Below, one piece after another: positions 1 through 3,000 of a stretch of 12,849 nucleotides of DNA (position 1 is the first letter of the stretch; every line of letters starts with the position of its first letter). Source of the stretch: a virus (taxonomy: Duplodnaviria; Heunggongvirae; Uroviricota; Caudoviricetes); IMG/VR virus record IMGVR_UViG_2654587686_000012; one strand, given 5' to 3'. Made by a program: the position numbers.

Positions 1-3000
1 AGGCCGCACGAATATAACGGTGGGTTGCCACCAAATGAATCGGAAAACCGATACTGGAAAAACTCTAAAGCGGTGGCCAGTTTTTGTTGACCACTACACA
101 TGCCGTCGCCGTCAACAAGTGAATACTCTTTCTCCTCAGGTTTCGCAGAGCGAACTTTAGTATCCGTTAGGGCCATAATGGTCTTCCTTCCATTGGTATC
201 TCGTGAGTATACAAGCAATATCGAATCGGCAAATATACTCATTAGTATACTCACAAGCCTGTTGATGTGGATTGAGTCAGGTTGACTTCAGTTGAGGAGA
301 AAAGCTGGAAAAGCCTTGCGTGGCGCGGATTTCAGGCATAAAAAAGACCTCAGTTGAGGTCTATTGACATACTTTTGGTGCCGAAGGCCGGACTCGAACC
401 GGCACGTATTTCTACGGTCGTTCGCTTGCCTAGCAAGCTCCTGTAATGCTTTGAATCAAAAGCAAAACTAACAACACATCGACACTTCACACTGTACACT
501 ATCAAGTGCAAAAGCCCTGACAAAATAGCCGGGGTTTGTATGAGTTTCAAGAGAGATCGCTATTTAATTTCAGATTCTTGCGGAAACTATCTGGTAAGGA
601 TCGCTATACCTAAGTATATGCGTCATCTATTTGGTGGGCGATGCAGCTACGTTAAGAGCACGGGTACAAGAGATATTCGAGAAGCACGGTTGTTCCGTGA
701 TGCGGTGGCGCTGGAATGGATAAAACTACGTAACAAGCTAAAGCCTCAACGTGAGAAAACATCGAAGATCGAGCAAATTATTACAGAACTACGGAAAGCT
801 GGAACATATGCATTTCAAGTATCTGAATCATTTAATGATTCTTCTATTGGCTGCCCTTCTCTTTTAAATATGCGGGATCAGTACATTCTCCAGTTTAGCG
901 AGAAGCGCAAGCTAACTACGCTATCAAAGACAAACAAAGCCGTAGAGGTGCTCTTAGAACATCTGAATAAACGCGATGTTCAGCTTCGTGACGTTAACCG
1001 AACTATTGTTACTAGCTGGTTAGATAACCTAAAAAATGAGAAAGCACCACAAACAATACAAAACTACATTAGTGCATTAGCCCAGATTTGGGATCTTGCT
1101 CGTAACCGCTACCACGATGCACCACAAGATAACCCTTGGCGAGGTCACGGCCTTGAAGCTAAAAGTAGCAAGGTGAATTATGAAGCCTTTAGCAATGATG
1201 AACTCGCAAAAGTGTTCTCAATGCTGGCTGATGAAGAAGAAATGCAAAATATAACACTGATCGGAATGTATACAGGTATGCGGATCAATGAGATAGCAAG
1301 TCTCACAATAGACGATGTGAAAGAGATCGAAGGTGTGCTGTGTTTTGAAATCACACAGGGAAAGACGAAAGCTGCGGCACGTGTTGTGCCTGTACATAGC
1401 CTTATCACTCCGTTGGTGTTGTCGCTGCGTGAAAAGCCTCATAATGGCTTTTTGTTCTATCACGCCAGCATCACAGAACGTGCAGACGGCAAGCGTTCCA
1501 CGTGGCACACGCAGAGATTTACAAGAGCTAAACGAAAGGCTTTAGGGGAAAAGGGAACAGAAAGGAAGGTGTTTCATTCTCTGAGACACGGAGTAGCACA
1601 GCTTCTTGATCGAAATCAAATTCCAGAAGACAGGATCGCCCTTCTCCTGGGCCATACACGCGGTAATACAGAGACATTCCGCACATATAGCAAGAATGCA
1701 GCTTCTCCAGTAGAGCTTAAAAACTATATTGAGCTTCTACGCTACCCTGAAATAGAGAAAGGCTTATCAATCAATAAAAAATCAAATTTAAGGCGTAAAA
1801 CAACGCTGTAGACGTAATAAAGAGGCTTCAATATAGACTGATGCCTCTTTTATGATTATCTCGTTACAGAGCGTTTCATAGGCGTTTAAGGCTATTGTTT
1901 AAATACTGGCGTTACAACGTCTTGCCCTGGGCTTTTTTGATTTTTCTGTTCTGTTGTATTTACCTGCATTTTAACCTGTCCCCCTACAGATTTATTTGGT
2001 GCTGTTTTTACCGCAATTGCGCTTGTAGTTGCTTTAGAGACAAGACGGATTTGCTCAAAATCAAGAGTAAACAATAGGCTTTCGCTTGCTTCTTCTGCGT
2101 AAGACATGCCAACTAACACAACGTTGTCATAATTTTTTAACTCAGTGACAAGTAGGAAAGGTTGGCGACTGTCCATCAACTGATTTAGGTATTCAAGCAT
2201 AAGCATACGTCGATTGCCGTTAATTCCAGCATTCTTAATCATATCAGGATTGAGCTTCAATACGGTTTCAGAGATACGCCCTTGTAATGTGAACTTGTTA
2301 TTCCGTATTTGAACATGATCACTAACTTCTGATCCTGATTCGACAGCATAGCTTGTAACGTCTGCATTTCTGCTAACTCTCGTCGATTCCACGCTATCAA
2401 ATGATAATGCCTGGTAGTCATTGTAAGCAGCATTTGCACCACTGCCGAGATTAGAGGTAATGATCGCAAAGCCGTTACCCCCTTTAGTTGTTCTACCGTT
2501 GCTATCGTTGCTTGTGCTGTTGATTTTCGCCTCAGTCGGGCGACCAATGGTTAACGGACCCATTGCCATAATTTGTAATCCTTATTTAAGGGGGCTAAAC
2601 AGCCCCACAGTGATGATTAATAGGTTGACCCGCCTGACATAACACCAAGCGTTAATAGCTTGCTAAACTCAGCGGAAGATGCCTTTGATTTGAAGTCGAT
2701 AAATTCGCTCAATCGTCCGGTGTCTGATTCGATAGTTAGCGGCACTTCTGCATTTACTTGTAATTCTGGATTGAAGTTAATAACAGGTGCAAAGGTGTAA
2801 GAAGGAGCCTTGAAAGCTTGTTGTGCTGCACTCTGTTTCAGATTTGCAATGTTTTGTCCTTCGAGACTGTATTGATTTACAGCCTGCGCCCCACCTACCG
2901 TTTCTTCTGGCATAAACCAGCTTTTAATAGTGTTAACCAGGGAATTGCTGTTATCTGGCTTAATTGTTCCGGTGCCAGCGCCTTTATATTGATCAGGAGT

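Follow-up and report, generated by a model that had tools for sequence, protein, structure and literature searches.

A displaced leuX 3' end as the probable attR of a 12.9-kb element stacked on an older, IS3-disabled island

The stretch of DNA analysed here (the window) is the 12,849 nucleotides of IMG/VR virus record IMGVR_UViG_2654587686_000012, which is assigned to the Caudoviricetes. Close to its left edge lies a 43-bp fragment of a tRNA-Leu gene (376–418, minus strand), with integrase sequence on both sides. We conclude, with a probability of about 0.93, that this fragment is the right attachment site (attR) of a 12,889-bp element integrated into leuX, and that the element is stacked on an older island of P4 type (BREX type) whose integrase has been disabled by an insertion sequence (IS) of the IS3 family. 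A first-pass annotation of the window had proposed tandem accretion at leuX with the fragment as attR, and the proposal is borne out by an intact tRNA at the far end of the element, by an unoccupied site in another strain, and by the finding that the components are separable. The coordinates of all features are collected in Table 1.

The fragment reads ACCGTAGAAATACGTGCCGGTTCGAGTCCGGCCTTCGGCACCA on the minus strand. It is an exact suffix of the 85-nt leuX tRNA-Leu(CAA), matching nt 43–85 at 43 of 43 positions, and the match breaks off at exactly 43 nt. A 31-nt piece of it is present as a single copy in the window, and was seen in none of 200 shuffles. A 43-nt fragment would not be expected to register as a tRNA, and ARAGORN indeed detects no complete one in the window, while an Rfam search at a permissive threshold gave only a chance match to a miRNA. 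Just 3' of the fragment, in the orientation of the tRNA, a terminator scan identifies a terminator-like hairpin (stem 362–345, minus strand) followed by a T-run, which is recognisable as the native leuX terminator, as found at unoccupied sites. Both the fragment and the terminator beside it were present in the first-pass annotation, and both stand. On this side of the 43-bp core, the window is identical to the native flank of intact leuX in E. coli strain 2014C-3338, with the exception of one single-nucleotide polymorphism. On the other side, tRNA sequence gives way to element DNA at base 419. The region 419–539 is common to the same junction in E. coli 2016C-3878, is more distantly matched on plasmid pX14-3-NDM, and would form the element-side arm of attR together with the region upstream of the integrase gene.

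The window ends before the element does, but its continuation can be followed in other sequences. Draft contig JHQZ01000147.1 (GCA_001265235.1) is 100.000% identical to window 1594–12849 (11,256 bp, 0 mismatches), with window base 12849 corresponding to base 3037 of the contig stretch examined. It continues for 416 bp past the end of the window to an intact tRNA-Leu(caa) at positions 2537–2621 of that stretch, which contains the same 43-bp core and is followed by ahr and yjgR. Apart from one deletion of about 0.5 kb, E. coli 2016C-3878 is 99.7% identical to window 327–12849 and presents the same picture: 416 bp past the equivalent of the window end it has an annotated tRNA-Leu, whose 3' part contains an exact repeat of the 43-bp core and which is followed by ahr and idnK. 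An intact tRNA-Leu with the same core, which had been predicted to lie somewhere to the right, is therefore present. The element is bounded at both ends by a direct repeat (43 of 43 positions), of which only the attR copy lies within the window. The junction thus fixes the exact borders of the element, which is 12,889 bp long when one copy of the core is counted.

The gene for a 423-aa tyrosine integrase starts 121 bp from the 43-bp core, so that the element has an integrase directly beside its attachment site. Pfam identifies Phage_integrase (E=3.6e-17), DUF6538 and Phage_int_SAM_5 in the product, and PHROGs identifies it as phrog_1 integrase (E=2.2e-37). Motifs of the catalytic type are found at the expected positions R248, K275, H346, R349, H372 and Y383, as assigned by eye from the motif positions. 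A BLASTP comparison of this protein with the P4-type integrase gave no significant alignment, and it contains DUF6538 and Phage_int_SAM_5 in place of the Arm-DNA-bind_3 domain of the P4 family. Judged by BLASTP and domain architecture, it is not a P4-family integrase and the two integrases are unrelated, in agreement with the earlier description of a different tyrosine integrase on this side of the fragment.

The one correction to the first-pass annotation concerns the left edge of the window. The ORF there, with 59 residues, had been read as the start of a P4/IntA-like integrase, which is true of the first 26 residues only. The minus-strand open reading frame (ORF) from base 176 reads MALTDTKVRSAKPEEKEYSLVDGDGM and then runs into unrelated sequence. 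Residues 1–26 (window 176–98) are identical to the N-terminus of the 422-aa integrase that follows leuX in strain 2014C-3338, a protein consisting of Arm-DNA-bind_3, Phage_int_M and Phage_integrase domains, which is the P4-family architecture. Residues 27–58 are read-through into the end of an IS3-family element. The ORF is thus a chimera, since residues 1–26 derive from an integrase and the remainder from the IS end. The 58-aa ORF has no Pfam match and lacks the domain architecture of a P4-family integrase, being a remnant of such a gene rather than a working form.

The IS can be assigned to the IS3 family. Bases 1–90 of the plus strand encode the last 29 codons of an IS3 transposase orfB (translation RPHEYNGGLPPNESENRYWKNSKAVASFC) and its stop codon. 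Window 1–330 has 99.4% identity to E. coli 2022H047, and the annotation of that genome shows here an IS3 family transposase whose coding sequence ends at the equivalent of window base 90. When 1–330 was used as a megablast query, nearly all of the E. coli genomes listed matched from base 98 only. Two strains matched from base 1, and in both of them these 90 bases correspond to the 3' end of a gene annotated as an IS3-family transposase. On the evidence of this junction, insertion of an IS3-family element has severed the older integrase gene after its codon 26, leaving a stub that cannot act. The tRNA fragment is therefore flanked by one intact integrase and one stub of 26 codons, because the IS3 end replaces the rest of the left-hand ORF. 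This corrects an annotation trap, in which an apparent 58-codon integrase start is in fact 26 codons fused to an IS end.

It is necessary to consider whether the two integrases are parts of a single composite island that is mobile as a whole, with the internal tRNA fragment as an old fossil. Large plasmids such as pX14-3-NDM carry the same junction, which could therefore be inherited or moved as a block, and the outer attachment sites of a tandem array could support co-excision. However, each component is found independently elsewhere. In strain 2014C-3338 the site is not occupied by the element, and leuX is followed directly by the terminator, the spacer and the P4-family integrase (99.6% identity to window 98–330), and then by BREX genes. 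The left flank (98–375) is accordingly the conserved leuX–integrase junction that the first-pass annotation had suspected, and the megablast search with 1–330 indicates that an older island directly at leuX is common in the genome collection. The element in turn occurs with three different neighbours: in STEC2018-607 it lies between leuX and a kinase/HerA island that has an intact 421-aa integrase, in Dog168 between leuX and a truncated integrase, and in 2016C-3878 beside a restriction/TIR island with no remaining integrase. In 2022H047 the same IS3/integrase stub is found behind a P4-like satellite (with sid, psu, delta-like, primase and reverse transcriptase genes), whose scar is about 23 nt long instead of 43, with one deletion and one mismatch. 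The strains 2014C-3338, STEC2018-607, Dog168 and 2022H047 contradict the idea of a 12.9-kb segment that is inseparable from the integrase stub, and the older integrase is in any case a stub that cannot act. A single composite island is thus highly unlikely. Two separable elements are indicated, because the older island is found on its own, the element beside other neighbours, and the IS3 stub with a P4-like satellite.

The tRNA genes leuX and thrW are among the recognised hotspots of integration (PMC7545054), and integrative elements have been documented in tandem arrays (PMC10111431).

The stacking of the element on the older island can be explained as follows, the mechanism resting on established tyrosine-integrase biology. 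The older island would itself have entered leuX by means of its P4-family integrase, and in related strains it is a BREX defence island. The tyrosine integrase of the element would then recombine the 43-bp identity segment of its attP with the 3' end of leuX. The element would supply a replacement 3' end, leaving the tRNA intact at attL, 416 bp beyond the window and next to ahr. The original 3' 43 nt would be displaced to the attR end, together with the leuX terminator and everything downstream of it, that is, the older island. The integrase of that island is now dead, cut after codon 26 by the IS3-family element whose end is seen at 1–97. In this way newcomers would target the regenerated tRNA and islands would stack, with the youngest nearest the gene. 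We infer that the 423-aa integrase catalysed the insertion. The older island presumably arrived first, for two reasons: newcomers insert into the intact tRNA that has been regenerated, and a strain with a different proximal element has the same IS3/integrase junction.

Several points weigh against this account. Integrase activity, excision and the order of arrival are predictions from sequence. No complete E. coli RefSeq genome contains the exact combination of IS3 stub and element, the best coverage of window 1–2000 being 84%. The window ends 416 bp before attL, so that the evidence for the intact tRNA comes from other sequences that are identical or nearly so. The older island has its distal end to the left of the IS3 element, beyond the window. 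Finally, the 43-bp scar still holds the P4-type core of about 23 nt, and a P4-type island could in principle enter there later.

This last point raises the possibility of the reverse order, in which the 12.9-kb element was the first to enter leuX and a P4-type island later entered the displaced 43-bp scar. The resulting junction sequence would look the same, and the segment of about 23 nt that is used by the P4-like satellite of 2022H047 provides a possible secondary attB within the scar. However, the IS3/integrase junction at 97/98 is shared with 2022H047 despite the different proximal element, which implies that the disabled island predates the current proximal occupants, and the finding that older islands commonly lie directly at leuX points the same way. 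We therefore consider the reverse order very improbable. That the fragment is the unintegrated attP of a circular element or phage genome carrying a tRNA-Leu 3' segment, already ranked as less likely in the first-pass annotation, is now scarcely credible: tRNA-targeting integrative elements do carry such segments and ARAGORN finds no full tRNA in the window, but an attP would join the two arms of the element, which this junction does not, and the flanks are both chromosomal, since 98–375 matches the DNA, chromosomal or from an older island, that many strains have immediately 3' of intact leuX, 1–97 is an IS3-family end, and the identical element is bordered at its far end by intact leuX with ahr and yjgR.

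The accretion of islands in tandem at tRNA hotspots is a familiar phenomenon, and with the fragment taken as the attR of a stacked element, the junction is a case of ordinary island stacking. In itself it is of little weight, as a clean and fully resolved example at a classic site. The wider value lies in the element, which is compact and widespread, and carries capsid and tail-core genes related to those of virulent phi92-type phages.

Two observations on the comparison sequences should be recorded. The E. coli plasmid pX14-3-NDM (NZ_CP084057) contains, at 6811–9702 of the stretch examined, BREX genes, a P4-type integrase, the leuX terminator, the 43-bp fragment and a related DUF6538 integrase, with 99% identity to the window on the left side of the junction and about 77% nucleotide identity on the right side (the DUF6538 integrase). 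Pieces of leuX tandem arrays have therefore been captured on plasmids, since large E. coli plasmids bear the same chromosomal junction. The P4-like satellite of 2022H047 (16330–29083 of the stretch examined) has a gene for a 958-aa reverse transcriptase beside its integrase.

Table 1. Features of the window, in order from the left edge
Feature	Position	Strand	Basis or remark
Right end of IS3-family insertion sequence	1–97	plus	terminal inverted repeat to about base 97
P4-family integrase N-terminal stub, 26 codons	98–176	minus	MALTDTKVRSAKPEEKEYSLVDGDGM
Spacer from leuX to older integrase, including leuX intrinsic terminator	177–375	minus	terminator scan and comparison with unoccupied site
attR core	376–418	minus	displaced 3' 43 nt (nt 43–85, through CCA) of leuX tRNA-Leu(CAA)
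Putative element-side arm of attR and region upstream of integrase gene	419–539	plus	divergence from tRNA at 419
423-aa tyrosine integrase	540–1811	plus	DUF6538, SAM_5-like and catalytic domains
Tail tube initiator (Dit-like), phi92 gp135 homologue	1892–2569	minus	Dit_like (Pfam), E=1.8e-27
613-aa tape-measure-like protein, phi92 gp134 homologue	2617–4458	minus	phrog_16051 tape measure, E=4.4e-31
343-aa predicted HK97-fold major capsid protein, lambda gpE type	4854–5885	minus	relatives and Foldseek
127-aa protein	5900–6283	minus	just upstream of capsid gene
Winged-helix DNA-binding protein (regulator/replication-initiator-like)	8801–9532	minus	HTH_36 (Pfam)
Sigma-70-like promoter and leader	9925–10051	minus	promoter scan; ahead of first ORF of leftward operon
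185-aa small serine recombinase (resolvase/invertase type)	11609–12166	plus	near tRNA-proximal end
Right arm of element	12167–12849	plus	continues 416 bp beyond window to attL (intact leuX)

The structural genes of the element have been further analysed, taking the roles of the phi92 proteins, including gp135 as the tube initiator, from the published description (PMC13450770). In a search of PDB sequences, the tube initiator matches Phi92_gp135 (E=4.2e-53). It has 48–53% amino acid identity to proteins of Justusliebigvirus and Phapecoctavirus, with the next tier of phages at about 31%. The 613-aa protein matches Phi92_gp134 (E=3.9e-20). It finds matches in 134 phage records at 26–31% identity, and among the matches listed nearly all are phi92/phAPEC8-type (Stephanstirmvirinae) genomes of 130–152 kb.

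The capsid protein is more remote. Relatives at 45–49% identity carry PF03864, and a structural model of the protein, which is of low confidence (pLDDT 57.6), has phage capsid proteins as its top Foldseek matches (PhiTE, E=1.6e-10). The match to the phi92 major capsid protein gp124 is weak (E=0.014), and a tblastn search of 50,697 phage records found none. The affinity of the protein with phages thus rests on the Pfam assignment of its relatives and on Foldseek analysis of a low-confidence model, because tblastn found nothing. On this basis it is predicted to be a distant HK97-fold major capsid protein. The 127-aa protein encoded just upstream may be a decoration or cement protein. Its top PDB match is the phi92 cement protein gp123 (130 aa), which at E=0.98 is not significant, and it has a weak local match to the decoration protein of phage inny. 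Its position and length parallel the gp123–gp124 arrangement of phi92.

Pfam and PHROGs scans of 20 ORFs recognised no portal, terminase, protease, sheath or tube genes in the element. PADLOC matched none of 10 element proteins to a known defence system, NCBIfam added nothing beyond generic recombinase matches, and ten small ORFs have no match in Pfam or PHROGs.

The winged-helix protein has a likely start at M20 (base 9475), giving 224 of the 243 residues of the ORF, and has weak PHROGs matches to replication initiators. Its residues 20–159 are 88% identical to the N-terminus of gp184 of phage inny. At the DNA level, 624 bp of window 9084–9708 are 95.5% identical to Escherichia phage inny (Justusliebigvirus), and within the same region 226 bp are 98.7% identical to phage muut. 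The matching segment spans the N-terminal domain of the winged-helix protein and a 55-aa ORF. Among the 50,697 phage records, inny alone matches the winged-helix protein at the protein level. This identity in protein and DNA suggests recent exchange of DNA between the element and a Justusliebigvirus-type phage.

The promoter ahead of the leftward operon is TTGACA-17-TAAAGT, with TG, at 10051–10023 (minus strand). It is followed by a leader of about 115 nt, which contains a terminator-like hairpin of 13 bp and then a U-run. The promoter and leader are invariant in the E. coli, Klebsiella and Citrobacter versions of the element, and this non-coding stretch, with a conserved box at about 10060–10080, is the sole DNA-level conservation among these versions. 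The promoter and leader may control the leftward operon by attenuation or antitermination.

Of 5,426 complete E. coli genomes, 827 have matches to parts of the element, and in 59 at least 80% of it is present. Sister copies, with the same body and other DUF6538 integrases, are found in thrW and in tRNA-Gly (near actS/xdhA), with the same polarity. The thrW copy of APEC E18055 lies between the tRNA and a remnant of an Arm-domain integrase with the vat toxin island. The family extends to at least nine other enterobacterial genera, with relatives (capsid protein 29–49% identical) in Klebsiella, Citrobacter, Buttiauxella, Kosakonia, Phytobacter, Kluyvera, Scandinavium, Raoultella and Yersinia. The Klebsiella version retains the small ORF, a 125-aa protein, the capsid gene, a 62-aa ORF, a protein of roughly 618 aa and the DUF6538 integrase. 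It is without the tube initiator, and has a 186-aa tyrosine recombinase in the place of the serine recombinase. Matches in IMG/VR are mostly prophage-type calls from isolate genomes, with no sign of packaging.

On the basis of these observations, we tentatively raise the possibility, which we hold to be plausible but less likely than not, that the 12.9-kb element represents an undescribed family of Enterobacteriaceae phage satellites or phage-parasitic defence elements, with virulent phi92/phAPEC8-type myophages (Stephanstirmvirinae) as helpers. These phages are suggested because the element has a phi92-like set of structural genes without portal, terminase, sheath or tube. The evidence is circumstantial, and consists of the helper-like structural genes, the exchange of DNA with phage inny, and a compact architecture that is conserved across genera. 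Such a satellite would enter leuX, thrW or tRNA-Gly by means of interchangeable DUF6538 integrases, and may express its leftward operon under the control of the conserved promoter, leader and terminator. It would provide its own capsid protein, a possible decoration protein, the tape-measure-like protein and, in E. coli, the tube initiator. These head shell and tail-core components would be substituted for those of the helper, and the remainder of the virion would be borrowed. We found no description in the literature of this element family or of any satellite of a phi92-type phage, although this is weak evidence as the coverage was incomplete. Should the element prove to be a satellite, then large virulent coliphages of a kind now under study for therapy would have a new satellite, which could alter the performance of such phages on natural isolates.

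It is useful to compare the element with known systems. The tandem arrays mapped by Islander/TIGER (PMC10111431), for example those of two phage-inducible chromosomal islands (PICI/PICI), are similar in having three att-type sites (the distal one would here lie to the left of the window), with the newest element at the intact target and an internal scar before an older element with its own integrase. The case described here differs in that the integrases are unrelated, that their identity blocks in the same tRNA are 43 nt and about 23 nt long, and that the older integrase has been destroyed by an IS. Islands with P4-family integrases at leuX (P4, PAI II536 and other leuX pathogenicity islands, PMC7545054, and BREX islands) share with window 98–375 the succession of leuX terminator and Arm-DNA-bind_3 type integrase, of which however only 26 codons are left here. 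The element in the window is without sid, psu, delta, primase and P4-type integrase by Pfam, PHROGs and BLASTP. More generally, Pfam, PHROGs and NCBIfam detected in it none of the hallmarks of P4-like satellites or classical PICIs (sid/psu/delta, alpA, primase-helicase).

The capsid-forming PICIs (cf-PICIs; 10.1101/2022.09.08.507074) resemble it in being small integrated elements (about 13 kb) with their own HK97-fold capsid protein and no full phage genome. However, the capsid-packaging module was not found here, in that the scans revealed no genes for a portal, a protease, a small terminase or head-tail connectors. The element also has tail genes (tape-measure-like and tube initiator), which are needless for cf-PICIs, described as using helper tails, and its integrase is of another type. 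The PLEs (PICI-like elements) of V. cholerae are satellites of the virulent myophage ICP1 (PMC12772148). If the element is a satellite, its helper would in the same way be a large virulent myophage (about 145–150 kb), and the element does share recent DNA with such a phage. The PLE structure PDB 8g1r appeared in the Foldseek search of the capsid model. On the other hand, no sequence homology to PLE genes was seen, and the PLE scaffold remodels the coat protein of the helper, whereas the element has its own capsid gene.

The remaining observations concern other parts of the element. The small serine recombinase is identified by Pfam as a Resolvase (E=1e-38) and by PHROGs as phrog_125 DNA invertase (E=1.9e-62). 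Most E. coli relatives that were inspected have this gene, and one thrW copy lacks it. An invertible segment on which it might act was considered and dropped, there being no convincing long inverted repeats around the gene. To its left is a stretch of 1.7 kb without annotated genes (about 9900–11609), in which the motif TCGTTACA occurs five times within 160 bp (10951–11112). The window contains six copies, against 0.36 expected. These repeats could be origin iterons or binding sites for a recombinase.

A second region without genes lies at 6530–7470. This segment of about 0.9 kb is low in G+C (31–37%), contains only ORFs of up to 52 aa, and has no annotated gene in any of the relatives inspected. 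It is worth adding that the deletion of about 0.5 kb in 2016C-3878 corresponds to window 8175–8668, and removes parts of two ORFs, of 127 aa (8042–8425) and 89 aa (8522–8791). Their proteins match no family, and the window has both ORFs intact, as do the copies at thrW and tRNA-Gly.

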